Origin: Escherichia phage ST0
Sequence record: MF044457
Reading direction: 5' to 3' (one strand)
Length of the DNA stretch: 64,000 bases
Below, in pieces: positions 1 to 54,755 of the stretch (position 1 is its first letter; each line of letters opens with the position of its first letter). Made by a program: the position numbers and the translations under genes. Under the pieces are notes generated by a model that did not search any database, was not told the origin of the DNA, and was given only the letters and a program-made list of their open reading frames with translations.

Positions 1-113
1 ACTACACTGTTCTCCTTGAGAAGACATTTATTAAACCACTTGAAGGATTCACATCAGCAGCGAAACTCGATTACGAGAAGAAAGCATCTCTGTTCGATAT
101 GTTCGATTTTTGA
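1..113 (+). CDS. 43: 3' end of DNA polymerase (gene 43), partial
   Basis: Frame ending TGA at 111-113 translates ...KPLEGFTSAAKLDYEKKASLFDMFDF*; the tail matches the sliding-clamp-binding C-terminal peptide I recall for RB69 polymerase. Position upstream of the 42/uvsX block fits T4 synteny. Confidence 0.6.
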   Translation, partial: YTVLLEKTFIKPLEGFTSAAKLDYEKKASLFDMFDF

Positions 114-153
114 TATAATGACATGGACGGTAAACTAATTAAATGAGAGAAAT

Positions 154-789
154 ATGAAAACTACTCCTATTACTATCGCTATTGACGCAATCATAAAACA
201 AGCTTCTTCTTTGGCCGCTATGGCCAAAGTAATTAGTCAAAACCCTGCTCGTTATAATGCTATTCTAGAAACTCTTCGACGCCCAGGACTTAGTAATTAT
301 GAAAGCCGAGTAATTATTACAGGTGTTGGTAAGAATGCTAATATTGCAACTAAAGCTTCTGAGACATTTGCTTCACTCGGTATCCCGAGTATGTACTTGA
401 ACACCGGGCATTATTCTCACGGTGATGCAGGATTCATTGCGCCTAATGATGTGTTGATTCATATTAGTCGTTCTGGTAAAACTGAAGAAATGATAGGCGT
501 GGCTAAGCATCTTAAAATGATTCGTCCGAACGTCAAACAGATTCTGTTGCATTGTAACCCAGACATTCCACAAGAAAATGAAGCCCTTTTTGATTACTCT
601 TTCTGTACAGGCATCGCAGTAGAGGTTGATGAGAATTCTCTGGCTCCGACCATGTCCACTACATTGTTGTTAGCGCTTATCGATACTTTTGCTATCAACC
701 TTTCGTCTGAGCGTGGATTTACCTCTAATGACTTCCTTAAGTTCCACCCTGGTGGTGCACTAGGTGCCATGTTACGAGGCGAACAATGA
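154..789 (+). CDS. SIS-domain sugar-phosphate isomerase, KdsD/GutQ-like arabinose-5-phosphate isomerase without CBS domains
   Basis: ORF track 211 aa. Motifs typical of the KdsD/KpsF SIS domain: GVGKNANIATK, SHGDAGFI, ISRSGKT, APTMSTT, FHPGGALG. RBS GAGAG upstream. Confidence 0.8.
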   Translation: MKTTPITIAIDAIIKQASSLAAMAKVISQNPARYNAILETLRRPGLSNYESRVIITGVGKNANIATKASETFASLGIPSMYLNTGHYSHGDAGFIAPNDVLIHISRSGKTEEMIGVAKHLKMIRPNVKQILLHCNPDIPQENEALFDYSFCTGIAVEVDENSLAPTMSTTLLLALIDTFAINLSSERGFTSNDFLKFHPGGALGAMLRGEQ

Positions 790-929
790 AAGCAATAACA
801 ATAGGACTTTTACTATTGATGCTTATCATGACTATCTACTGGAGCTTAACGGCTCCGGTAATGATTCCGACTCTTATAATCGGATGGATTATGATTGGAC
901 TACAAGCAAAGTATGAATGCTTTAACTAG
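786..929 (+). CDS. small hydrophobic protein, 47 aa, below ORF-track size cutoff
   Basis: ATG at 786 overlaps the stop of the preceding gene (ATGA). Translation MKAITIGLLLLMLIMTIYWSLTAPVMIPTLIIGWIMIGLQAKYECFN is almost entirely hydrophobic. Confidence 0.35.
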   Translation: MKAITIGLLLLMLIMTIYWSLTAPVMIPTLIIGWIMIGLQAKYECFN

Positions 930-970
930 AATAGTGTACAATACTCCTACTTACCAATGAGGACCACAAT

Positions 971-2656
971 ATGAAAAAAGCTGTTATTCTTGGTGCTGGA
1001 CTGGCAACTCGTTTGTATCCAATAACGCATCATATTCCTAAGGTGCTTGTTAACTATAAACAAGACACTATTCTGAGCAATTTGTATACAATTTATTCTG
1101 ACCTTGGTGCAGACGAAATTATTGTAGTAGTTCATTCAAAATTTGCTGAAACTGTTCGAGCTTATTGTGAGCAAGAAGGGTTCAATGTGACTATTCGTAC
1201 AGTTGATGAAGCATATGGTTCTGCTTATGCTCTTGCTAAATTGCACAAAGATTTAGACGGCCATAATGTAATTGTTAACTGGTGTGATATTATTCCCGAT
1301 TTTGGTTCATGGTCTTGGAATGTTAACGCAATCTATGTTAAGGGTGACGAATGTCGATATAATTTCGACGGTGAAAATATCACTAACGTAGGTTCAACAG
1401 GTGGTAATGTTGTAGGAATTTATCAGTTCAAAGACTGGGAATTCTATATGGGTTCTACTGATGAGGAAATTCATGAATACTGCAAAGGACGTGATTTCGT
1501 AGAATTCCTTTACGGCAGCGCATTCAATAAATCAGAGCTTATGAATCTAATTGATTTAGGTGATATGCCTAAACTTGAAAAAGCTCATGAAGTTCGTGAA
1601 CTTAATCGTAGTTTTAATGCAGTTGAAATCGGTGAAGAAACTGTAACTAAATTCGCATTAACCGAACAGGGCCGAGCTCTTCAGAAAGATGAGATTTCAT
1701 GGTATCTTAAAGTGAAATCAGATTCAGTTCCTCAGTTAGTTTCTGTTAATGAAAATAACTTTGAAATGGAACGCATTAAAGGTAAGCCAGCATTTGAATA
1801 TATTAAATCCAAATCGAGTCTTGCTCGTCCACAAATTGTTGATGCAATTTTAGATGCACTGAAATTCAGCACAGACACTTATTTTGTAAGTCCTGAAACT
1901 GTTCGCCGTGATTTCACTAAAGAGTTCTATACGAAAGTTATTGATCGTTGTGAAAGTATTCAACCATTGATTGATTCATTCGGTAAAATCACACATGTGA
2001 ACTACACTAAGATTGGACGTCTGAAGCCAATGTTGAAACAAGCTTTAGAACACCTTATTCGTTATCATAACCGTTCTCAGGGACAGTACTCTGTTATTCA
2101 TGGTGACCCGAACTTCAGTAATACTATGATTACTGATAATGGTGAAGTCAAGTTTATCGACCCTCGTGGATATTTTGGTGAAACCAAGATTTACGGGCCA
2201 AAATTGTATGATGAAGCTAAAGTGCTTTATGCTGTTTCAGGTTATGATGAATTCAACGCTAATCCGACCTGGGGGCAATTTACTATTGATGAAACAACTT
2301 GTAATGTGACTATTAACATCAATCCATTAGTTTACAAATATGGAAAGATGAGTTCGTTTAACGAGTATCATCATTTGGCAGTTGCAATTATCTGGATTGC
2401 ATTAGGCGGTTATTTCAAGAATAATCCACTTAAAGCGGTAGCCGCATATTATAAAGGTATGGAACTTCTGACTAAGCAATTACGCAACATGGGCCGTGTA
2501 CTTCAGGACGGCTCTATTAGTTATGACGTAGCAGAACCTGTAACGGCTACTCTGATTACAAAAAATCCTGGTAAATGGGTACTAACTGATAAAGAAACTG
2601 GTGTTTCCTATCGTCCAATCGGTGGCGATATCACTCATCAATGGGAACGAATCTAA
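971..2656 (+). CDS. bifunctional sugar-1-phosphate nucleotidyltransferase (N-terminal) / sugar kinase of the choline-kinase/APH fold (C-terminal)
   Basis: ORF track 561 aa. N-terminus ILGAGLATRL is the G-x-G-x-R loop of LicC/RmlA-type nucleotidyltransferases. C-terminal half has HGDPNFSNTMI and FIDPRG, resembling the catalytic loop and DFG-like motif of LicA/APH kinases. RBS GAGGA. Confidence 0.8.
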   Translation: MKKAVILGAGLATRLYPITHHIPKVLVNYKQDTILSNLYTIYSDLGADEIIVVVHSKFAETVRAYCEQEGFNVTIRTVDEAYGSAYALAKLHKDLDGHNVIVNWCDIIPDFGSWSWNVNAIYVKGDECRYNFDGENITNVGSTGGNVVGIYQFKDWEFYMGSTDEEIHEYCKGRDFVEFLYGSAFNKSELMNLIDLGDMPKLEKAHEVRELNRSFNAVEIGEETVTKFALTEQGRALQKDEISWYLKVKSDSVPQLVSVNENNFEMERIKGKPAFEYIKSKSSLARPQIVDAILDALKFSTDTYFVSPETVRRDFTKEFYTKVIDRCESIQPLIDSFGKITHVNYTKIGRLKPMLKQALEHLIRYHNRSQGQYSVIHGDPNFSNTMITDNGEVKFIDPRGYFGETKIYGPKLYDEAKVLYAVSGYDEFNANPTWGQFTIDETTCNVTININPLVYKYGKMSSFNEYHHLAVAIIWIALGGYFKNNPLKAVAAYYKGMELLTKQLRNMGRVLQDGSISYDVAEPVTATLITKNPGKWVLTDKETGVSYRPIGGDITHQWERI

Positions 2657-3042
2657 TGCACCGTGTAGAAAACATGCTTAATCTTTGTTTTGATGTCGAT
2701 GATTGTATAACAGAGTGGAATAACAATCGTGATTACGTGAACTTCAAACCAGACGTCGAAATGGTGTCTGCCATTAATGCCCTGTATGATGCAGGGCATA
2801 CCATAACGCTTTACACTGCTCGCGGTATGAAGTCAGTAGGCCCTGGTCGTATAGCAATTGACATTCTCCCAAGTCTGATTCAGAACTTGGCAAACATTGG
2901 ATTGAAGTACCATAATTTGCTAACACATAAACCAGTATATGATTGGATTATCGACGACAAAGCTATGCGTCCTGACGAATTCAAAGCTCTTATGAATAAA
3001 GGCGAATTCGAAACATTTAAATCATATAAACCGAATCTATAA
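2656..3042 (+). CDS. HAD-superfamily phosphatase-like protein
   Basis: ORF track 2641..3042; start moved to ATG at 2656 overlapping the upstream stop (TAATG). Motif I-like FDVDDC near the N-terminus, T in LYTAR, K in THKP, IIDDK motif IV-like. Confidence 0.6.
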   Translation: MHRVENMLNLCFDVDDCITEWNNNRDYVNFKPDVEMVSAINALYDAGHTITLYTARGMKSVGPGRIAIDILPSLIQNLANIGLKYHNLLTHKPVYDWIIDDKAMRPDEFKALMNKGEFETFKSYKPNL

Positions 3043-3096
3043 TAATTTAAGTAAGACCTGCAAAAACCATCGCAACAATTAACGCGAGATGCAAAA

Positions 3097-4257
3097 ATGA
3101 ATACCTTTAAAATCGGAACGAATTTTGATTTAGCTCTTCTTGATAAAATCGTAGAGCTCAATAAAACTTATCCTAATAGCTTGATAAACGAAGTATACGG
3201 CTCTACAAGAGAAATGGCTTTTGTAGCAGCCAGACCTGATTTTAGGCTTCCTGACGTTGACAAAAAGATGTTAGAAGATTACGTTAAACGTTGTAACGAA
3301 TTAGGTATTTGCTTTAACTATACACTCAACACGATAAATCCTGGTTCAAAAAGAGAACTAGTTGAGTGGAAGAAGAAAGCTATTCAGGATTATGTTCAGT
3401 ATCTTTGGTCAATAGGCGTATGGCGTATTACTATCGCTAACCCTGTTGTTATGGAAATTGTTCGTGAAGTCAATAAAGACATTGAGATTGAAGTTTCAAC
3501 AATTCTACATGTCGATGCTGTAACTCAAATCAAATACTTGCATGACCAATATAATATCAAAAAGGTCTGCTGCGGAATTCATAAGAACCGTTCAGTTTCT
3601 TTCCTGAAGCGTGCAGCAGAGTTTTGTAATAAGAACAATATAATATTTGAAGTTCTTGTAAATGAGTTCTGTTCTAATGCTGGTAAAGGGTATACAACAC
3701 ATTGTAGTTATCGTGACTCTTGCTATATTTTCCATAGCACCGATGTTACAGTAGATGATGCCAAATCTTTAAATGGATATCCAATGCAACATTGTATTAA
3801 AGCTCGTGATACAGATCCATTTAACTGGTTGAGAACTCGTTTTGTTCGTCCTCAAGATTTGAAACTTTATAATGATATTGGTATCACTCAATTCAAAGTT
3901 TCAGGACGTACAGGTAGCACAGACTACATTTTGAAAGTTCTTGAAGCTTATGCTTCTGAAAAGTTTGAAGGTAATTTGTTGGAATTGTGGAAGCCTTTAG
4001 AGACCATTTTCACTCTTGAAAATGAGACTGAGTTTTCACATACGGTAAATATTGAAACCTCTTTGTTAGATGGCTTTTTAGAAAAAAGGTGGTTCAGACA
4101 TCCAGATTTCGATTGTGCTAATGAAATCTGCGGGACGACGTGTACATATTGTGAAAGATATTATAAACGTCAATTATCTAAAAACGGGTTAGCAGAAAAC
4201 TCTATATCTATTATTGATATAACTAACTCTGATGACGCTTTGAGGTACCCGGAATGA
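3097..4257 (+). CDS. Cys-rich protein with U32-family-like signature, function unknown
   Basis: ORF track 386 aa. EVLVNEFCSNAGKGYTTHCSYRDSC resembles the U32 family signature (E-x-F-x2-G-x-x-C...C-x-x-S); C-terminal CANEICGTTCTYC cluster. Confidence 0.55.
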   Translation: MNTFKIGTNFDLALLDKIVELNKTYPNSLINEVYGSTREMAFVAARPDFRLPDVDKKMLEDYVKRCNELGICFNYTLNTINPGSKRELVEWKKKAIQDYVQYLWSIGVWRITIANPVVMEIVREVNKDIEIEVSTILHVDAVTQIKYLHDQYNIKKVCCGIHKNRSVSFLKRAAEFCNKNNIIFEVLVNEFCSNAGKGYTTHCSYRDSCYIFHSTDVTVDDAKSLNGYPMQHCIKARDTDPFNWLRTRFVRPQDLKLYNDIGITQFKVSGRTGSTDYILKVLEAYASEKFEGNLLELWKPLETIFTLENETEFSHTVNIETSLLDGFLEKRWFRHPDFDCANEICGTTCTYCERYYKRQLSKNGLAENSISIIDITNSDDALRYPE

Positions 4258-4397
4258 TTTCTAGAAAAACTTTTAACCACCAACTTAACGAAGAGATTTT
4301 GACTATGAAAATTAACAGCAACGAACAAATTCTTAAAAAGGCCCTAATGGGCCTGTTTGAAACTAAAGCGGCTAAAGTGATTAAAGAACCTGTTTAA
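4254..4397 (+). CDS. small ORF, 47 aa, below ORF-track cutoff
   Basis: ATG overlaps the stop of the preceding gene (ATGA); translation MISRKTFNHQLNEEILTMKINSNEQILKKALMGLFETKAAKVIKEPV. Confidence 0.25.
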   Translation: MISRKTFNHQLNEEILTMKINSNEQILKKALMGLFETKAAKVIKEPV

Positions 4398-4535
4398 TTG
4401 GAATACTACGCTGATGCATTTCTTCATAGTGTTCTTGGAAGTATCGATGCTGAAGCTTTACGTTATATCAACATTGTCAAGAAATTCAAATAAGCTTTAC
4501 GAATTGAGTATATAATAAATTGTATTGAGGTAAAC

Positions 4536-5252
4536 ATGGGAAAACATAACACAATGAAATATATCAAAGCCGCAGATTTTCAAACCGCATTTAAAGCAGT
4601 CAATCGTGAAATTTTAGAAAACCCGGAATTCGTAACTGATTCTCGTATTGGACGTTGTAATGAAATTGGGTCTATGACAGTAGTTGTTGACACTCCGTCA
4701 TCATTCAAAATGACTGACCCACGTATTAACCGCATCTCTTATGAATATGCCGAAGACTTCTGGAAGTTTATGATTTCTGGTGGTACCAACGCAGAAGAAG
4801 CGTTTAAGGCATATCCTAATGTCGCTAAATTTATTTCTAAACCAAAATCAGATGTTTTGCCGGCGAACTTCAACACTTTCTATGGTCCTCGCATTGTGGC
4901 CCAATTACCAGCTCTTCTAAAAGAACTTAAAGAGAAGCCTAACTCTCGAAGAGTTGTGTTCCAAATTCTAGAAAGTTCTGATCAGGCTTTGCTTGATTCG
5001 GACGAAACACTTGAATATCCATGTACTGACTCAGTGACTTATTATATTCGCGATGGTAAGCTTTATACCCACTGTCATATGCGTTCTCAGAACTGTGCTG
5101 TTGTTATGCAGTTGGATTTTTATCTCCAAGGAAAATTACTTCATTATATCGCTAACGAATGTGGTGTAGAAGTTGGTGATTATACTCATACCATGGTAAG
5201 TGCCCATGTGTTTGAACGTGATTTTGATTATGTTAAAGGATTCCTTGACTAA
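4536..5252 (+). CDS. 42: thymidylate-synthase-fold pyrimidine hydroxymethylase, gene 42 (dCMP hydroxymethylase) position
   Basis: ORF track 238 aa. NSRRVVFQI, YPCTDSVTYYIRDGK and HMRSQNCAV parallel the SRR, catalytic Cys and MRSND regions I recall for T4 gp42, but overall divergent. RBS GAGGT. Confidence 0.7.
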   Translation: MGKHNTMKYIKAADFQTAFKAVNREILENPEFVTDSRIGRCNEIGSMTVVVDTPSSFKMTDPRINRISYEYAEDFWKFMISGGTNAEEAFKAYPNVAKFISKPKSDVLPANFNTFYGPRIVAQLPALLKELKEKPNSRRVVFQILESSDQALLDSDETLEYPCTDSVTYYIRDGKLYTHCHMRSQNCAVVMQLDFYLQGKLLHYIANECGVEVGDYTHTMVSAHVFERDFDYVKGFLD

Positions 5253-6151
5253 TGGCTATTTTCCGCGTACCTATCTTGAGTATGCGGTCTTATGAAACTG
5301 GACAGTATGCTATCCTTAAGGATGGCAACTTCCAACTTCATTTGCACCGTGCTAATCCGGGTGATGTGATTACATATCCACGTAATGCATCTGATATTAA
5401 AGAATGTGAACGTCTTTTCCCAGAATTTAAGTTTGTTCCATTATGGTATAAAGATAACGCGTATAACACTCGTAAATATTTCTGGTCTGAAAATGAATTT
5501 GTGGTTGATTCATTAATTGCTTATTATGATTGTGATTTTCTAATCACAGATATCACTGGATACGACGGCGCTTTTGACGTAGAATTCAATTTCAATATCA
5601 CTGCAGACCCTAATAAACCACGTTTTTATATTGACGAATTCTTAAAAACCGATATGTTGTCGGTTAATCGTTCACTTCAAACTACCGTGTTGAATAAACG
5701 TCAAAAGGAAGTGCTGGTTAACGCTGGTGCAGATGGTAATAAGATTATCGTAACGCAGAAAGTTATACGTCCTTCCATCATGCAGCGTCTTGTAGGTGAT
5801 TTGGCTCCTATTCATCTAGATGGTATTTTTCATCCATTTCGAATTAGTGACCCGTGCTATCGTTTTGAACAAGTGGTTGAATGTGCAATTCAATTAGGCC
5901 AACCGCTTTATATAACCGATCCAAATAATAGCTTCGACAGAAATAAGTATCCTGAAGAAGCGCTGATTCGAATTTTTAAACCAACTAAAACTGAGTACTA
6001 TCAAATTCTTAAAGGACGGCCGAAGATTCAATATTTCGAAAATCCTGAAGAAGTATTCCATCCAGGTCTTGGTGAGTTCATCTACTTTAATGCTTTAATT
6101 TCTTCACCGTATAATATACCTAAATACGAAGATGTCGTAATCGAGGAATAA
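5252..6151 (+). CDS. hypothetical protein at the beta-glucosyltransferase locus
   Basis: ORF track 299 aa; start overlaps the stop of the hydroxymethylase gene by 1 nt. No motif recognised. Confidence 0.5.
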   Translation: MAIFRVPILSMRSYETGQYAILKDGNFQLHLHRANPGDVITYPRNASDIKECERLFPEFKFVPLWYKDNAYNTRKYFWSENEFVVDSLIAYYDCDFLITDITGYDGAFDVEFNFNITADPNKPRFYIDEFLKTDMLSVNRSLQTTVLNKRQKEVLVNAGADGNKIIVTQKVIRPSIMQRLVGDLAPIHLDGIFHPFRISDPCYRFEQVVECAIQLGQPLYITDPNNSFDRNKYPEEALIRIFKPTKTEYYQILKGRPKIQYFENPEEVFHPGLGEFIYFNALISSPYNIPKYEDVVIEE

Positions 6152-6152
6152 A

Positions 6153-6701
6153 ATGGCTAAAATTATTTTAGTAGATGGCCCAGATAATGCTGGTAAAACA
6201 ACTTTCATTAATGACATAATGGAAATTAGTGAAAGATATGTAAAGATTGATTTCCCTAAACGAACAGTTGATGGACGTTTCGATGTTAAGTCTCGAAATG
6301 AAGTTGGCTGTTTCGAAACGATGTTGAATTATTTAGACCCTACTAAGATTTATCTGTTAGACCGTGGATATATTAGTAACTGGGTTTATGGACGTATTCG
6401 ACAAGATGCGGACTCGGTTCTTGACGTTTATGAACAGGATTATGTTCGTCTTTGCCAAAACCATGATGTGTTCACAATTATTTTAACACGTAACGAAATG
6501 ACTGAAAGTTTTGAAGACGATCTTATTACTTTGTCTTCATTCGGTTTTAATACAGTCATTTCATATTTTGAAGAGTTTGCAATTCATAACAAAATCCAAA
6601 CGTATCAATTACTTAATCATGACGGTGCTAACAAAGTTATAGGATTTAATGCAAGCGAACGTAATTATTTGATTACAGAAATTATCAAATGGGCTCGTTA
6701 A
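6153..6701 (+). CDS. P-loop NTPase, small nucleotide/sugar-kinase-like
   Basis: ORF track 182 aa; Walker A GPDNAGKTT at residues 9-17; starts 1 nt after the upstream stop. Confidence 0.6.
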   Translation: MAKIILVDGPDNAGKTTFINDIMEISERYVKIDFPKRTVDGRFDVKSRNEVGCFETMLNYLDPTKIYLLDRGYISNWVYGRIRQDADSVLDVYEQDYVRLCQNHDVFTIILTRNEMTESFEDDLITLSSFGFNTVISYFEEFAIHNKIQTYQLLNHDGANKVIGFNASERNYLITEIIKWAR

Positions 6702-6800
6702 GAGCCTGTTTAAAGTTTTAAATGCTGTATAACCCTTAGTATATAATCGTCTTATCTTTTAAACATGAGTAAAATATAATGATGCCTATGGAAAAATACA

Positions 6801-7973
6801 ATGTCTGATTTAAAATCTCGTCTGATTAAAGCTTCTACTTCTAAAATGACTGCAGACTTGACTAAGTCTAAGCTGTTTAATAATCGTGATGAAGTCCCTA
6901 CTCGTATTCCGATGTTGAATATTGCATTAGGTGGTGCACTGAATGCCGGGTTGCAATCAGGCTTAACTATTTTTGCTGCTCCTTCTAAACACTTTAAAAC
7001 GTTGTTTGGACTGACCATGGTTGCAGCATATATGAAGAAATATAAAGATGCAATCTGTTTGTTCTATGATTCAGAATTTGGTGCTTCAGAATCTTATTTT
7101 CGTTCAATGGGTGTTGATTTAGACCGTGTAGTTCATACTCCGATTCAATCTGTCGAACAACTTAAAGTTGATATGACTAATCAGCTTGACGCTATTGAAC
7201 GCGGTGATAAAGTTATTATCTTTATCGATTCAATCGGTAATACTGCATCTAAGAAAGAAACTGAAGATGCATTGAACGAGAAAGTTGTAGGTGATATGTC
7301 TCGTGCTAAGGCACTTAAATCTCTGTTCCGCATTGTGACTCCTTATCTGACTATTAAAGATATTCCATGTGTTGCAATCAACCATACAGCAATGGAAATC
7401 GGTGGATTGTATCCTAAAGAGATTATGGGTGGTGGTACAGGTATTCTTTACTCTGCTAACACTGTATTCTTTATCTCTAAACGTCAGGTTAAAGAAGGTA
7501 CAGAATTGACCGGTTATGACTTCACGTTGAAAGCAGAAAAATCTCGCACCGTTAAAGAAAAATCTACTTTCCCAATCACGGTTAATTTTGATGGCGGTAT
7601 TGACCCATTCAGTGGCTTGTTAGAAATGGCAACTGAAATTGGTTTTGTGGTTAAGCCTAAAGCTGGGTGGTATGCTCGTGAATTTCTTGACGAAGAAACA
7701 GGTGAAATGATTCGTGAAGAAAAATCATGGCGTGCTAAAGCTACTGATTGTGTAGAATTCTGGGGGCCGTTGTTTAAACACAAACCTTTCCGAGATGCAA
7801 TTGAAACTAAATATAAACTAGGTGCTATCTCTTCTATTAAAGAAGTTGATGACGCTGTTAACGACCTTATTAATTGCAAAGCAACAACTAAAGTTCCGGT
7901 TAAAACTTCTGATGCTCCGTCTGCAGCAGATATAGAAAACGACCTTGACGAAATGGAAGATTTCGATGAATAA
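6801..7973 (+). CDS. uvsX: UvsX RecA-like recombinase
   Basis: 390 aa; near-collinear with T4 UvsX as I recall it (MSDLKSRLIKASTSK..., GWYAREFLDEETGEMIREEKSWRAK). Confidence 0.95.
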   Translation: MSDLKSRLIKASTSKMTADLTKSKLFNNRDEVPTRIPMLNIALGGALNAGLQSGLTIFAAPSKHFKTLFGLTMVAAYMKKYKDAICLFYDSEFGASESYFRSMGVDLDRVVHTPIQSVEQLKVDMTNQLDAIERGDKVIIFIDSIGNTASKKETEDALNEKVVGDMSRAKALKSLFRIVTPYLTIKDIPCVAINHTAMEIGGLYPKEIMGGGTGILYSANTVFFISKRQVKEGTELTGYDFTLKAEKSRTVKEKSTFPITVNFDGGIDPFSGLLEMATEIGFVVKPKAGWYAREFLDEETGEMIREEKSWRAKATDCVEFWGPLFKHKPFRDAIETKYKLGAISSIKEVDDAVNDLINCKATTKVPVKTSDAPSAADIENDLDEMEDFDE

Positions 7974-8307
7974 TCTTGATGATTTAAATCTAGAAATCGT
8001 TGATGAATCCCCTTCTTCGGAAGGGGAAGACATTCGCAAAGAACGAGTGTTTAATGAATCTCTTAAAATTATCCGTTCAGCAATGGAAAATGTCATTCAA
8101 GAGATTCTGATTACACTTGAAGATGGTTCTCATCATATAGTCTATATTACAAAACTAGACTGGGTTGATGGTAAAATCGTAATGGACTTTGCAGTTCTTG
8201 ACCAGGACAGAAAAGCAGAACTTGCACCGCATGTTGAAAAATGTGTTACAATGCAAGTACAACAAGCTTTTAATGAACGGACCAAGAAAAAATTTAAATT
8301 CTTTTAA
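7966..8307 (+). CDS. 40: gp40-like head assembly protein
   Basis: ORF track 7945..8307; start moved to ATG at 7966 overlapping the uvsX stop. Position between uvsX and 41 as in T4. Confidence 0.55.
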   Translation: MNNLDDLNLEIVDESPSSEGEDIRKERVFNESLKIIRSAMENVIQEILITLEDGSHHIVYITKLDWVDGKIVMDFAVLDQDRKAELAPHVEKCVTMQVQQAFNERTKKKFKFF

Positions 8308-11487: not shown

Positions 11488-11736
11488 ATGGAATTATTCG
11501 TAGCTAGTTCAGTAGCGGTTTTAATCGCAGGTATTGGTTCAATCATCATTTACATGTTGCCTTGGGTAATCGCACTTATTCGTGGCACAAAAAGCACAAC
11601 AGCAATCTTCTTTGTATCTTTACTCTTTAACTGGACGATGGTTGGTTGGATTGGAACTTTAATTTGGTCTATCGTTGCCGAAAAGAAATCTGCTCAGCAG
11701 CCTCAACAAGTAATTATTATTCGCGAAAAAGAATAA
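11488..11736 (+). CDS. small integral membrane protein (two predicted TM helices)
   Basis: 82 aa; two long hydrophobic segments; RBS AGAGGA. Confidence 0.6.
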   Translation: MELFVASSVAVLIAGIGSIIIYMLPWVIALIRGTKSTTAIFFVSLLFNWTMVGWIGTLIWSIVAEKKSAQQPQQVIIIREKE

Positions 11737-14775: not shown

Positions 14776-15297
14776 ATGGCACACTTTAACGAATGTTCAC
14801 AACTTATTTCTGGTGTTGATAAAGCAGAAGAAGCTTATTTTAATGCTCTGATTCACGAAGATAAAGACCCACTGCAGGTAATGCTTGATATGCAGAAATC
14901 TTTACAGGTTCGTCTGGCAAATGACAAGCCTGAACATAACAAACATCCTGATGAATTGGCCACTGCTGGTGATGTTGTTGATTGGCTGCGTAATCAGAAA
15001 GATTATATTGATGATGAATTCCGTGAACTGCTGACTTCACTTGGTGGTATGAGCAATGGTGAAAAAGCCGCTAGCTCTGTATGGAAACCGTGGAAGGCGC
15101 AACACGCTGAATATCGAAATCGTCGTATCGATGAACTGTCTCCTGAAGACCAGCTTGAAATTAAATTCGAGATGATTGATATTCTACATTTCGTTCTAAA
15201 TATGTTCCAAGGTCTAGGACTTTCTGCTGAAGAAATCTTCAAACTGTATTACCTGAAAAACCAACACAACTTTGAACGCCAGGATAATGGTTACTAA
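14776..15297 (+). CDS. 56: gp56 dCTP pyrophosphatase (MazG-like dCTPase/dUTPase)
   Basis: ORF track starts at a TTG at 14761; ATG at 14776 gives MAHFNECSQLI... matching the remembered T4 gp56 N-terminus; RELLTSLGGMSNGEK and EIKFEMIDILHFVLNMF conserved. Confidence 0.85.
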   Translation: MAHFNECSQLISGVDKAEEAYFNALIHEDKDPLQVMLDMQKSLQVRLANDKPEHNKHPDELATAGDVVDWLRNQKDYIDDEFRELLTSLGGMSNGEKAASSVWKPWKAQHAEYRNRRIDELSPEDQLEIKFEMIDILHFVLNMFQGLGLSAEEIFKLYYLKNQHNFERQDNGY

Positions 15298-27015: not shown

Positions 27016-28116
27016 ATGAAAGTTATGTTTATCCCATCTCGTGCAGTCCCATTTAATCCTGACCGTGTACAAGGTGGCCTTGAAGCAGTACATTTAAATG
27101 TGTTGAAATATCTTGTGTCCATCGGTGCTGATATTGATTATATCGGCTTTGATAATGACACGTTTGGTGACTGGAAAGTTACACACCATCCTGTTGGTCA
27201 TCTGACTAAATTCAGTCTAGGTATGAGTTATACTATGGCTCGTAAGATTGTTGAACTAGCCGACATCCATGAATACGATTTTGTTGTTACTATGGAACCG
27301 ACTAAACTAACCGTTCAGGCAATTAAAGACGCAGGTCTCTCTAAAGTTCATAAGAATTTTATGGCAACACCATTTGAACCGGTATCTCGTGGCATTGTTC
27401 AAATTTGGGACCAGACTATTCAAATTCATAAGAATGGTGGTAAGAGTTATGCTCCTACTAAAGCCTTCCGTGAATTTGAACGTAAATATTGCCATATGAC
27501 TTCAGCTCTGACTGACAAAATTGATTATGATTATTGGCGAGCAAATCCGTTGTTTGAAGCCGAAGATTATCCGGTTATTTGTTTGAATGAGAAACCTGAA
27601 GTTCTTCCAGCGACTGATCTGATTATTAGTGCACAACGTTATGACACTAAAATGCGTCGTACTGATGTTGCTCTTGAAGCAATTAAAGCACTAGGCGAAA
27701 ATGGTATTGGTTATTGTCCTAGTAAATGGGCACCACCAGCTAAATATCCTGTTATTATTGATGCTCCACACAGTGAAATCATGGAACGTCTTAAAACAGC
27801 TAAAGCACTTATTAATACGTGTCCTGACACAGGTACGGTAGAGAATAGTTCTATTGAAGCCATCTCTAAAGGTGTCCCTGTAATCCAGTTAGCTTTTAAG
27901 GATTATCCTCATGCGACATTCGAATACGACCCAGATACTGTGCGTGTCGAAATTGATTCCTCTACTCCTAAGAAAGAAGTAGTTGCGCTTTACACAAAAG
28001 CTGTATTAGAATTCACTGACACATACGAAGCTCGAGTTAAACGTGCTGAAGCAGTATGGAAGAAGTATAATCGAGATGCAGTTGTTGCGATGTGGGATAA
28101 AATCTTCACAGCGTAA
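27016..28116 (+). CDS. GT-B-fold glycosyltransferase-like protein (candidate DNA hmC glycosyltransferase)
   Basis: 366 aa; C-terminal ENSSIEAISKGVPVI resembles the E-x-x-x-x-EA...G-x-PVI donor-binding motif of GT4-type GT-B enzymes. Lies between 39/60 and rIIA. Confidence 0.65.
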   Translation: MKVMFIPSRAVPFNPDRVQGGLEAVHLNVLKYLVSIGADIDYIGFDNDTFGDWKVTHHPVGHLTKFSLGMSYTMARKIVELADIHEYDFVVTMEPTKLTVQAIKDAGLSKVHKNFMATPFEPVSRGIVQIWDQTIQIHKNGGKSYAPTKAFREFERKYCHMTSALTDKIDYDYWRANPLFEAEDYPVICLNEKPEVLPATDLIISAQRYDTKMRRTDVALEAIKALGENGIGYCPSKWAPPAKYPVIIDAPHSEIMERLKTAKALINTCPDTGTVENSSIEAISKGVPVIQLAFKDYPHATFEYDPDTVRVEIDSSTPKKEVVALYTKAVLEFTDTYEARVKRAEAVWKKYNRDAVVAMWDKIFTA

Positions 28117-53318: not shown

Positions 53319-53898
53319 ATTAGTATTCGCATGTGCTCCGACTAAAACAGTTGATGATAAGCTGGAATATGCTTTTGGATTAGGTGATATGCTTCCATGG
53401 AAGCATATCAAACAAGATATGAGTAACTTTGTTGCTCGCACTAAAAACACTGTAATGGTTATGGGTGCTAAGACTTTTGCATCATTACCTCGTCTACTCC
53501 CAGACCGTACTCATGTGGTTGTCACTGATATGGCCAGAAAACTGCCTAGGACTAAAACTGATGAACTTGCACGGTTCTATATCACCCAATCTGAATTTAT
53601 TACCTTGGTAACAGGTGGTGAAATTAACCTGTTTAGCCATGCAACTGACGTACCGTTTAAACTTTCTACTGAACATGTTGATGTCTCGGTTATTGGTGGT
53701 CCTGCTTTATTAAAACAAGCACTGCCTTATGCCGATGAAATCGTGATGACTAAAATCATTAAGAAATGTCGTGTTAATTCCGATGTTCAACTTGATAAAG
53801 ATTTCGTCCAAGATATTATGCTTCAACGTTCTATGGTAGAATCTCATTACTACAGAATCGATGAACTCACCGAAATTACTGAGAGCGTTTATAAATGA
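53311..53898 (+). CDS. frd: Frd dihydrofolate reductase
   Basis: ORF track 53227..53898; ATG at 53311 (overlapping the upstream stop) gives MLKLVFACAPTKTVDDKLEYAFGLGDMLPW..., close to remembered T4 Frd; C-terminus ...ITESVYK. Confidence 0.9.
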   Translation: MLKLVFACAPTKTVDDKLEYAFGLGDMLPWKHIKQDMSNFVARTKNTVMVMGAKTFASLPRLLPDRTHVVVTDMARKLPRTKTDELARFYITQSEFITLVTGGEINLFSHATDVPFKLSTEHVDVSVIGGPALLKQALPYADEIVMTKIIKKCRVNSDVQLDKDFVQDIMLQRSMVESHYYRIDELTEITESVYK

Positions 53899-54755
53899 AA
53901 CAATACCAATACCTGATTAAAGATATCTTAGAAAATGGCTACGAAACAGACGACCGTACAGGTACCGGCACTATTGCCCTGTTCGGAACTAAATTGCGAT
54001 GGGATCTGACTAAAGGATTCCCTGCGGTAACAACTAAGAAATTAGCATGGAAAGCTTGTATTGCCGAGTTACTGTGGTTCATGTCTGGTTCTACCAATGT
54101 TAATGATTTGCGTATTCGTACTCATGGTAGTCTTATTCAAGGTAAAACTATTTGGGACGACAACTATGAAAATCAGGCAAAAGACCTTGGGTATCATAGC
54201 GGCGAACTTGGTCCTATTTATGGTAAGCAATGGCGTGATTTTGGTGGTGTAGACCAATTAGTTGAAACAATCGACCGTATTAAAAAATTACCAACTGATC
54301 GTCGTCAAATTGTTTCTGCCTGGAATCCAGCTGAAATAAATCAAATGGCTCTTCCTCCTTGCCATATGTTCTATCAGTTCAATGTGCGTAATGGTCATCT
54401 TGATTTACAATGGTATCAACGCAGTGTAGATGTTTTCTTGGGTCTGCCGTTCAACATTGCCTCGTACGCTGCCTTGACGCATATTGTAGCGAAGATGTGT
54501 AACCTTATCCCAGGTGATTTAGTGTTCTCAGGCGGCAACACGCATATCTACAGCAATCATGTAGAACAATGCAAAGAAGTTCTTCGTCGTGAACCTAAAG
54601 AGTTATGTTCTCTTGAAATTAATTGGCCTAGTAATTTTGAGAATTGGCCTACAAAAATCCAAATGGACTGGGTTACTGGAACGATGACATATTCTGATTT
54701 CGTTCTTAAAAATTACGAATCACATCCAGCTATCAAAGCTAAAATGGCGGTATAA
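53895..54755 (+). CDS. td: Td thymidylate synthase, uninterrupted
   Basis: 286 aa in one frame; MKQYQYLIKDILENGYETDDRTGTGTIALFG and catalytic PPCHMFYQFNV match T4 Td. Confidence 0.95.
   Translation: MKQYQYLIKDILENGYETDDRTGTGTIALFGTKLRWDLTKGFPAVTTKKLAWKACIAELLWFMSGSTNVNDLRIRTHGSLIQGKTIWDDNYENQAKDLGYHSGELGPIYGKQWRDFGGVDQLVETIDRIKKLPTDRRQIVSAWNPAEINQMALPPCHMFYQFNVRNGHLDLQWYQRSVDVFLGLPFNIASYAALTHIVAKMCNLIPGDLVFSGGNTHIYSNHVEQCKEVLRREPKELCSLEINWPSNFENWPTKIQMDWVTGTMTYSDFVLKNYESHPAIKAKMAV

Follow-up and report, generated by a model that had tools for sequence, protein, structure and literature searches.

Described Enzymes of Cytosine Modification

Phage T4 gp42 is a dCMP hydroxymethylase (EC 2.1.2.8; PDB 1B5E). 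Re-use of this folate enzyme fold for flavin monooxygenase chemistry was published in 2025–2026, and in vitro reconstitution of the enzyme in question, AfhB of phage HY126 or gp48 of phage RB69, has reportedly been achieved by He et al. (Nat Chem Biol 2026). RB69 gp48 in combination with a dNMP kinase gives rise to 5hodC in E. coli DNA, with incorporation of oxygen from 18O2, and co-purifies with an FMN-like flavin, the gp1-type dNMP kinase phosphorylates 5-hydroxy-dCMP according to the literature on orthologs, and NMR and MS indicate an ether link from C5-O in the modified DNA (PMC13326640). An older account had described RB69 DNA as containing arabinosyl-hmC (PMC6024577). The HY126 enzyme is represented by PDB entries 9IQC, 9IR2, and 9IQU, with the titles "Monooxygenase dependent on riboflavin with dCMP and FAD" and "phage HY126 dCMP hydroxylase-AfhB with substrate dCMP," so the flavin species differs by source, being FMN in PMC13326640 and FAD or riboflavin in the PDB titles.

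Correct annotation concerns hundreds of T4-like genomes in which the gene is called either "thymidylate synthase" or "dCMP hydroxymethylase." An AfhB-type gene marks a different DNA chemistry, 5-O-arabinosyl-cytosine. This chemistry governs how sensitive the DNA is to restriction, CRISPR, and type IV systems, and it is relevant to phage therapy and genome sequencing.

Identity of the ORF at the Gene 42 Position

The window, i.e., the whole stretch of 64,000 nucleotides from Escherichia phage ST0 (MF044457) that was analyzed, contains at 4536–5252 (+) an ORF encoding a 238-aa protein of the thymidylate-synthase fold (Pfam Thymidylat_synt, E 1.2e-15, 57.8 bits at a cutoff of 24.3). Its location, with the end of gene 43 and uvsX on either side and a glycosyltransferase gene coming next, corresponds to the gene 42/beta-gt position of T4. 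The sequence-only reading had flagged this protein as far more divergent than its neighbors, and tblastn with T4 proteins against the window clearly bears this out, as identity to T4 gp42 amounts to 24.8% over 218 aa (E 1e-10), whereas gp41, gp40, uvsX, and Imm reach 85, 81, 68, and 64%, respectively. By the same search, no second gp42-like gene is present in the window, the 25% match at 4614–5225 being the only one. The protein is 98.7% identical to RB69 gp48 (NP_861738), differing by the three substitutions N85D, V107A, and V121A, and 97% identical over its full length to HY126 AfhB (E 3e-160). An AF2 model (pLDDT 85) matches 9iqc with a TM score of 0.94.

Carrying over the function of these 97–99% identical orthologs, the gene at the T4 gene 42 position is predicted to encode a dCMP 5-hydroxylase (5-hydroxy-dCMP synthase) employing flavin and O2 instead of methylene-tetrahydrofolate, a reading to which we assign a probability of about 0.93. 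The label "hydroxymethylase" given by the sequence-only reading has to be dropped accordingly, while its suspicion that the protein is no ordinary gp42 ortholog and that the product handed to glycosylation is unlike that of T4 agrees with the 5-hydroxy-dCMP formed by the orthologs. The oddity at the gene 42 position is real, but it is explained by an already published enzyme and is in this sense already known.

The family is conserved at 53–99% in phages (372 records) and in hundreds of metagenomic sequences. Judged from pairwise and profile scores, it is roughly equidistant (21–29% identity) from gp42, ThyA/td, and MilA. It may have arisen by divergence in place or by cassette replacement. 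T4 gp42 structures do not appear among the best 60 PDB sequence matches and the best 50 fold matches of the 238-aa protein.

Signature Residues and Substrate

The landmarks listed by the sequence-only reading (SRR, the catalytic Cys region, and MRS-x-N) are all present. In S137-R138-R139 (4944–4952, +), both arginines align with the phosphate-binding R126/R127 of ThyA and are invariant in an alignment of 120 homologs. The motif E160-Y-P-C163 (5013–5024, +) ends with the catalytic nucleophile C163 (5022–5024), equivalent to ThyA C146 and T4 C148, and begins with E160 replacing ThyA L143 (T4 D145). Within MRSQN (aa 182–186; 5079–5093, +), R183 corresponds to ThyA R166 and N186 (5091–5093) to ThyA D169/T4 D171, the aligned T4 gp42 motif being MRSND. 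This difference had been noted correctly and is meaningful as a D169N exchange; it does not, however, involve the base-specificity residue, as had been assumed, since this position (ThyA N177/T4 D179) is taken by D194 (5115–5117, +). In thymidylate synthases, ThyA D169 is the folate-side Asp. Its replacement by Asn is a published diagnostic signature of the 5-hydroxylase clade, Glu or Asp at L143 is a published signature as well, and the role of N177D has been described (PMC13326640). E160, C163, N186, V190, and D194 are all invariant among the 120 homologs (53–99% identity), with N186 and D194 each found in 120/120. V190 replaces ThyA G173, and the ThyA W80 position is occupied by Ala or Lys and hence not aromatic. 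From the same alignment, a family-specific, near-invariant segment at aa 93–120 (YPNVAKFI.KPKSD.LPANFNTFYGPRI; 4812–4895, +) replaces the W80/W83 folate-contact region of ThyA. Residues ~91–120 show a pLDDT of only 52–68 in the AF2 model, and these low values point to a probable mobile loop above the cofactor site. Altogether, the protein combines Asn at D169, the catalytic Cys, Asp at N177, and an acidic residue at L143 with a close sequence and structure match to a characterized member of the AfhB/5hodCMP synthase clade.

An alternative would be a gp42 ortholog that is functional despite strong divergence, i.e., a folate-dependent dCMP hydroxymethylase forming 5-hydroxymethyl-dCMP that is then arabinosylated, as implied by the label in the sequence-only reading, by many GenBank records and by the 2018 RB69 model. 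Besides the T4 gene 42 position with a glycosyltransferase next to it, this assignment can draw on an acidic residue at the ThyA L143 (T4 D145) position and Asp at N177 (T4 D179), just as in T4 gp42, on a family profile that aligns 201 columns with T4 gp42 at E 3.9e-12 and thus scores slightly better than against ThyA, and on some records stating dCMP hydroxymethylase as well as the report of arabinosyl-hmC (PMC6024577). However, the 25% identity is far from high similarity, Asn replaces the Asp of T4 D171 (ThyA D169) in 120/120 homologs, Trp is missing from the W80 position, and the 97–99% identical orthologs make 5hodC with oxygen from O2, have been crystallized with flavin and yield DNA with a C5-O ether link (PMC13326640). 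The published LC-MS and 18O2 data largely rule out a folate-dependent hydroxymethylase, which appears very improbable. With regard to the two features by which the sequence-only reading would have tied the protein to T-even gp42 orthologs, the specificity Asp is indeed conserved (D194, 120/120), whereas tight clustering with these orthologs is not seen at 25% identity.

The choice between dCMP and dUMP, which had been left open, can be narrowed as well, since Asp at the D194 position predicts cytosine specificity and therefore dCMP as substrate. An enzyme acting on dUMP, be it a second thymidylate synthase or a hydroxymethylase/hydroxylase of dUMP, is still less probable than a gp42-type enzyme. 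It would fit the annotation "thymidylate synthase" in most records and the finding that the best non-self PDB sequence matches are classical thymidylate synthases (E ~1e-12), but D194 is not Asn in any of the 120 homologs, the crystal structures contain dCMP, which is also the substrate described in the literature, and the window already encodes a canonical td elsewhere (53895–54755; 45% identity to E. coli ThyA, RSVD...PFN motifs). Moreover, the protein deviates from classical ThyA/td at N177 (D194), L143 (E160), and D169 (N186), and it scores only 17–70 bits against the NCBIfam thymidylate synthase equivalogs, all far under the cutoffs of 108–427.

Upstream Region

Putative expression signals of the dCMP 5-hydroxylase gene lie at 4492–4530 (+), comprising AAGCTTTA (4492–4499), an 11-nt gap, TATAAT (4511–4516) and the Shine-Dalgarno sequence GAGG (4527–4530), which ends 5 nt ahead of the ATG at 4536. 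From reading by eye against the MotA-box consensus, we infer that AAGCTTTA and TATAAT may form a T4 middle-promoter-like site; a scan of positions 1–8000 for sigma-70 promoters and terminators gave nothing above shuffled expectation. Further upstream, a small ORF at 4254–4493 (+) is orthologous to RB69 gp49 but, in contrast to the latter, bears a nonsense codon (in-frame TAA at codon 48, nt 4395–4397). Its homolog in a Serratia phage contig is a separate ORF of 74 aa. An assignment of the small ORF as the chorismate mutase of relatives was rejected, as it shows neither a Pfam match nor BLASTP similarity to CM_2 ORFs.

That the gene itself is a decaying, non-functional gene 42 relic, as the low identity to T4 and the broken ORF upstream could hint, can practically be dismissed in view of an intact reading frame with a good Shine-Dalgarno sequence, a confident structure model, and 53–99% conservation over the phage and metagenomic sequences with invariant catalytic residues.

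Pathway Genes and Proposed Route to Arabinosylated Cytosine

The genes at 154–6701 match RB69 gp45–gp55, the published cluster being present as a whole at 96–100% identity, and thus place the dCMP 5-hydroxylase gene together with genes for a DNA glycosyltransferase, a nucleotide kinase, and NDP-sugar synthesis. The same gene core is found in phage contigs from Klebsiella, Serratia, Shewanella, and Acinetobacter. An arabinose-5-phosphate isomerase (154–789, +; RB69 gp55 ortholog, 100% to RB69p055; SIS/KpsF, E 2e-32) represents the first step of the sugar-donor branch (PMC13326640). It is followed by an AfhE-like bifunctional sugar kinase/nucleotidyltransferase (971–2656, +; 99.5–99.7% to RB69p052 and p053; NTP_transferase and kinase-like Pfam matches), for which the equivalent of RB69 gp52:53 is a single 561-aa ORF here, and by an AfhF-like HAD-type sugar phosphatase (2641–3042, +; RB69 gp51, 99% to RB69p051; TIGR01689 capsule-biosynthesis phosphatase, E 4e-13), both roles being assigned according to PMC13326640. 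At the T4 beta-gt position, a glycosyltransferase predicted to be DNA arabinosyltransferase 1 is encoded (5252–6151, +; 98–100% to RB69p046 and p047; phrog_3891), a single 299-aa ORF equivalent to RB69 gp46:47; a second glycosyltransferase (27016–28116, +; RB69 gp3 ortholog, 98% to RB69p003) is the predicted beta-arabinosyltransferase 2 (roles according to PMC13326640). A thymidylate-kinase-like nucleotide kinase (6153–6701, +; RB69 gp45, 98% to RB69p045; phrog_761, E 6e-45) is also encoded. Of seven related contigs examined, six have an ORF of 168–186 aa after the genes for AfhB and the glycosyltransferase, with a faint thymidylate-kinase match where annotated. Finally, gp56 dCTPase (14776–15297, +; 97% to RB69p028) supplies dCMP and removes dCTP.

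By homology, C163 would attack C6 of dCMP, as in all enzymes of the thymidylate synthase family, while D194 would read the N3/N4 face of cytosine. The activated C5 might then attack an oxygenated reduced flavin located in the usual place of folate, with N186, V190, and the 93–120 loop taking over from the folate contacts, and elimination of the Cys adduct would conclude the enzyme reaction. As independent, albeit indirect, support for flavin use in homologs, a gene of the Flavodoxin_2 family (FMN-dependent oxidoreductases) is found directly upstream of a distant homolog in three large T4-like contigs. A search of the whole window revealed neither a flavin reductase nor Flavodoxin_2 homologs, so reduced flavin would have to come from the host. 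The resulting 5-hydroxy-dCMP would be converted to the triphosphate, and the phage polymerase would build it into DNA where dC would normally go, dCTP being removed by gp56 dCTPase. On the DNA, the 5-OH group would be arabinosylated by the glycosyltransferases encoded at 5252–6151 and 27016–28116, using UDP-arabinose presumably made by the products of 154–789, 971–2656, and 2641–3042. Decoration of cytosine with arabinose in the phage DNA would begin with the reaction of the dCMP 5-hydroxylase.

A U32-Family Neighbor as Candidate for an Anaerobic Route

Between the phosphatase gene and the small ORF, a Peptidase_U32-family Fe-S-type protein is encoded at 3097–4257 (+; RB69 gp50, 99% to RB69p050; Pfam U32, E 6e-11, 42.4 bits at a cutoff of 22.4). 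Besides the U32 domain, it possesses conserved Cys ligands for Fe-S clusters, nine Cys being invariant in 120 homologs. Alignment of a 29-sequence profile with RlhA by hhalign gave a moderate match (E 2.9e-5), in which C203/C209 align with the CX6C motif, while a shallow 4-sequence profile gave no informative match. Sequence searches of PDB with the protein and its profile did not return any match, whereas by fold, the U32 protein 5d88 is the best match in the PDB. In 51 phage records, a CM_2 chorismate mutase gene is found beside the U32 gene, which it follows in related phages, and the two occur together in phages of Klebsiella, Serratia, Yersinia, Enterobacter, Edwardsiella, Erwinia, and Shewanella. 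CM_2 homologs were not detected anywhere in the window.

U32 enzymes are O2-independent, prephenate-dependent hydroxylases (PMC10990095, PMC6599085), and the protein at 3097–4257 may therefore provide an anaerobic route to 5-hydroxycytosine. On the basis of gene association, we tentatively consider it a candidate for such a second, prephenate-dependent route beside the O2/flavin-dependent AfhB, although this is rather unlikely to hold. The phage chorismate mutase would then make prephenate as the oxygen donor. If true, DNA modification could be kept up under anoxia by gut and sediment phages, where AfhB cannot work, and this would be the first U32/prephenate hydroxylase in DNA precursor metabolism. 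An anaerobic U32 route is not mentioned in the literature found, which did not extend to He et al. (2026) and Mahler et al. (2025), where it may be described already; neither gene, U32 or chorismate mutase, is taken up in the Thanatos paper or in a phage Tn-seq preprint. Unlike the main finding, this side lead may be new.

Comparison With Known Systems

The idea of two routes to one hydroxylated product parallels the pairs UbiI/H/F versus UbiU/V and TrhO versus TrhP. With E. coli ThyA and phage td, the 238-aa protein shares the fold, the catalytic Cys, the phosphate-binding Arg, and His207, but identities are only 24 and 21%, respectively, N177 is exchanged for Asp, D169 for Asn, and L143 for Glu, and, at 238 versus 264–286 aa, the protein lacks the folate-closing tail at the C-terminus. 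The closest non-self solved structure is the CMP 5-hydroxymethylase MilA (PDB 5JNH, 5B6D; Foldseek E 6e-19, TMq 0.83), which is likewise specific for cytosine nucleotides and bears Asp at both the N177 and the L143 positions. At 22–23% identity, however, MilA differs in its ribonucleotide substrate, its folate-dependent hydroxymethylation, and its length of ~320 aa. T4 gp42 is alike in fold, catalytic Cys, specificity Asp, the acidic residue at L143, dCMP as substrate, the location between gene 43 and uvsX, and the DNA glycosyltransferase gene next to it. Differences are Asn at T4 D171, Val at ThyA G173, and a W80 position without Trp, and while T4 gp42 uses methylene-THF and forms a 5-CH2OH product, the AfhB type employs flavin and O2 for a 5-OH product. 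In HY126 AfhB and RB69 gp48, finally, the same fold, signature residues (E160, C163, N186, and D194), gene cluster, and genomic position are found, with only 3–6 conservative substitutions in the protein studied here and none of them at a signature position.

Identity of the protein in the gene-42 slot

The 238-aa product of the ORF at 4536-5252 (+) gives a Pfam match to Thymidylat_synt (E 1.2e-15). As expected from the sequence-only reading, this protein is far more diverged than its neighbours. Whereas gp41, gp40, UvsX and Imm of T4 find counterparts in the window at 85, 81, 68 and 64% identity, respectively (tblastn), T4 gp42 (sequence from NC_000866) only reaches 24.8% (E 1e-10), and with this query no second gp42-like sequence was found in the window. 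When searching the PDB sequences by phmmer, the protein matches entries 9iqc, 9ir2 and 9iqu over its full length at about 97% identity (E 3e-160), with the titles 'Monooxygenase dependent on riboflavin with dCMP and FAD' and 'phage HY126 dCMP hydroxylase-AfhB with substrate dCMP', both released 2025-07-16. The next matches, classical thymidylate synthases (E ~1e-12) and MilA (E ~3e-11), are far behind, and T4 gp42 is absent among the best 60. An AlphaFold2 model obtained with a 26-sequence alignment (pLDDT 85) agrees with 9iqc at a TM of 0.94. The protein, here termed AfhB, shows only three differences to RB69 gp48 (N85D, V107A and V121A).

The biology of this ORF is already published. In DNA of RB69 and Acinetobacter phage DLP3, 5-hydroxycytosine is arabinosylated through an ether link at C5 (Lee et al., NAR 2026, PMC13326640; also bioRxiv June 2025), and 5-hydroxy-dC enters E. 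coli DNA when RB69 gp48 and a phage dNMP kinase are co-expressed (PMC13326640). In the gp48 reaction, 18O from 18O2 is incorporated, and the enzyme purifies as a yellow protein from which an FMN-like flavin is released (PMC13326640). For orthologs, conversion of dCMP and O2 with flavin to 5-hydroxy-dCMP, subsequently phosphorylated by the dNMP kinase, has been shown (PMC13326640). A structure of the HY126 enzyme with flavin and reconstitution of its reaction are attributed to He et al. (Nat Chem Biol 2026).

Active-site residues and proposed mechanism

For residue mapping, one alignment was made with RB69 gp48, T4 gp42 and E. coli ThyA, and another with 120 database homologs. The thymidylate synthase landmarks previously noticed are present, with SRR at aa 137-139, the catalytic C163 within EYPC and MRSQN at aa 182-186, the latter indeed reading MRSND at the aligned place in T4 gp42 (NC_000866). 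Corresponding residues in ThyA and gp42, respectively, are C146 and C148 for C163, L143 and D145 for E160, R126/R127 and R123/R124 for R138/R139, R166 and R168 for R183, D169 and D171 for N186, G173 and a glycine for V190, N177 and D179 for D194, and H207 and H216 for H224. None of the 120 homologs (53% to 99% identity) deviates at E160, C163, N186, V190 or D194. The base-specificity residue (ThyA N177, T4 D179) is, by alignment, D194 and not the asparagine of MRSQN, as had been assumed. The suspicion that the enzyme is not a normal gp42 and delivers a different product was right, while the role of this residue was misassigned and the choice between dCMP and dUMP, regarded as open, is not really in doubt with the specificity Asp conserved; tight clustering with gp42 orthologs was nevertheless not seen. 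The difference between MRSQN and MRSND, as aligned, matches exactly the D169N exchange (ThyA numbering), a signature published as diagnostic for 5hodCMP synthases, with validation on nine diverse homologs (PMC13326640). Furthermore, no Trp is found in the region aligned with the folate contacts W80/W83 of ThyA. This region is covered by the family-specific and nearly invariant aa 93-120, where the low model confidence suggests a mobile loop.

Considering the conserved thymidylate synthase machinery, C163 would add to C6 of the substrate, with D194 selecting cytosine, and the activated C5 might then be oxygenated by a reduced, oxygen-activated flavin bound in the former folate site, where N186, V190 and the 93-120 loop would replace the folate contacts; elimination of the enzyme would be the last step. 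In three T4-like metagenomic contigs of 200-380 kb, a gene of the Flavodoxin_2 family (E 1e-13), having the fold of FMN-dependent NAD(P)H oxidoreductases, lies directly 5' of the AfhB homolog (L007 8162-8668, L014 8492-8992 and L015 8475-8969). This gene order lends independent support to a requirement for reduced flavin, and the encoded protein is a candidate for a dedicated flavin reductase partner. The window does not contain a Flavodoxin_2 gene and, therefore, reduced flavin would need to come from the host.

Genomic setting and arabinosylation pathway

Bases 1-8000 are 97.8-98.5% identical over the full length to Mosigvirus genomes, among them those of Shigella phage phi25-307 and Escherichia phage JS09 (megablast), and the encoded proteins of the window show 93-100% identity to those of RB69, thus identifying it as an RB69-like T-even relative. 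From the end of gene 43, the order is uvsX, 40, 41, 61, dda, 39 and rIIA, collinear with T4 in reverse map order. The imm gene at 11488-11736 (+), 64% identical to T4 Imm, sits between genes 41 and 61, while the T4 gene is found between genes 42 and 43, an interval filled by the arabinosylation cluster in ST0. A Shine-Dalgarno GAGG 5 nt upstream of the ATG at 4536 is a good match supporting the start codon, and the MotA-box-like AAGCTTTA followed after 11 nt by TATAAT just upstream of the ORF may be a MotA-type promoter.

The remaining pathway genes are 96-100% identical to RB69, with concordant family assignments across Pfam, NCBIfam and PHROGs. They encode an arabinose-5-phosphate isomerase (154-789), a bifunctional kinase/nucleotidyltransferase (971-2656 (+), 561 aa), a HAD phosphatase (2641-3042), a glycosyltransferase (5252-6151 (+), 299 aa), a thymidylate-kinase-like kinase (6153-6701 (+)), the gp56 dCTPase (14776-15297) and a second glycosyltransferase (27016-28116). 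In RB69, the 561-aa and 299-aa proteins are split into gp52/gp53 and gp46/gp47, respectively, which the authors ascribe to sequencing errors (PMC13326640), and the intact ORFs in ST0 support this view. At the position of the thymidylate-kinase-like gene, 3' of afhB and the glycosyltransferase gene, six of the seven related contigs examined have an ORF of 168-186 aa with a faint thymidylate kinase match where annotated. The kinase encoded in the window may serve specifically the modified nucleotide.

Between the Peptidase_U32 gene and afhB, the ortholog of RB69 gp49 (4254-4493 (+)) is interrupted by an in-frame TAA at codon 48 (nt 4395-4397). The phi25-307 counterpart has a frameshift, RB69 gp49 is intact (79 aa), and this protein appears dispensable in some Mosigviruses. 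A chorismate mutase function was rejected, as the ORF is homologous to a 74-aa ORF located between the U32 and chorismate mutase genes of a Serratia phage contig and not to the mutase itself.

A U32 protein possibly enabling anaerobic hydroxylation

Between the sugar genes and afhB, the ORF at 3097-4257 (+) encodes a 386-aa Peptidase_U32 protein (Pfam 42 bits, cutoff 22), the ortholog of RB69 gp50. The U32 proteins characterised so far are Fe-S enzymes that hydroxylate independently of O2. UbiU/UbiV, which correspond to the flavin hydroxylases UbiI/H/F under anaerobic conditions, take the oxygen from prephenate (PMC10990095), and TrhP catalyzes prephenate-dependent 5-hydroxyuridine formation in tRNA alongside the O2-dependent TrhO (PMC6599085). 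E. coli RlhA is annotated as '23S rRNA 5-hydroxycytidine C2501 synthase'. RB69 gp50 itself is only listed in a table as 'sugar or heterocycle reductase', without discussion (PMC13326640).

The AfhB clusters in contigs of Klebsiella, Serratia and Shewanella phages have an ORF of 81-85 aa 3' of the U32 gene, with at most one small ORF in between (regions L008 7620-9022, L012 7360-9004 and L006 11178-12568), and the two re-scanned ones score 33-40 bits for type II chorismate mutase (Pfam cutoff 27). Chorismate mutase makes prephenate. The phage enzyme occurs in 51 phage records (tblastn), adjoining genes annotated 'thymidylate synthase' and 'peptidase' among the matches listed with informative annotation. 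Across Escherichia, Klebsiella, Serratia and Shewanella phages, the U32 protein shows 81-85% identity compared to about 71-80% for AfhB and is, thus, the more conserved of the two. Nine cysteines (C158, C192, C203, C209, C233, C340, C345, C349 and C352) are conserved without exception in 120 homologs with identities as low as 48%. With a profile built from 29 sequences, the best alignment is to RlhA (E 2.9e-5), with C203/C209 falling on its CX6C motif, and the one to UbiU is weaker (E 0.012). The AF2 model (pLDDT 89) has the U32 structure 5d88 as best match.

AfhB was found in 372 phage records (tblastn; Escherichia 175, Acinetobacter 57, Klebsiella 26, Rhizobium 20, and others) and U32 homologs in 220, which according to the organism counts and rows shown all belong to Enterobacterales or Shewanella. 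Acinetobacter and Rhizobium are absent from the ten commonest organism names of the U32 records, hence at most a few of their records can carry the gene; both host genera are aerobes. Since U32 enzymes are O2-independent and prephenate-dependent, the neighbouring chorismate mutase, the cysteines, the RlhA match and this distribution suggest that 5-hydroxy-(d)cytosine may also be reached by a prephenate-dependent anaerobic route complementing the O2-dependent AfhB, the evidence being one of association only and host taxonomy being confounded with phage phylogeny. This route may be new. Chorismate mutase is absent from the window and likewise from Mosigviruses, which would therefore depend on host enzymes. 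In further large metagenomic contigs (L016 6447-8086; L017 7001-9888 and 11160-14428), more distant U32 homologs of about 50-55% identity lie beside genes for dCMP deaminase, thymidylate kinase, UDG, 5'-nucleotidase, deoxynucleoside kinase, a radical SAM enzyme and nucleoside deoxyribosyltransferase, with no AfhB homolog within the ~7 kb flanks examined, which hints at a wider role of the subfamily in modified-nucleotide metabolism.

Comparison with related enzymes

When a profile of the AfhB family is compared with T4 gp42, the alignment extends across 201 columns (26% identity, E 3.9e-12), and with ThyA it is limited to the C-terminal 108 columns (E 3.5e-9). MilA is the nearest non-self structure to the AfhB model by fold (TMq 0.83). 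The window also encodes a canonical thymidylate synthase, td (53895-54755 (+), 286 aa), which is 45% identical to E. coli ThyA and has normal RSVD...PFN motifs but shares only 21% identity with AfhB; the phage thus has two proteins of this fold that are quite unlike each other. Judged from these profile and fold distances, AfhB represents a separate deep branch of the superfamily rather than a tightly clustering gp42 ortholog. Its gene holds the gene-42 slot with a glycosyltransferase gene next in line, resembling T4, where beta-gt comes after gene 42.
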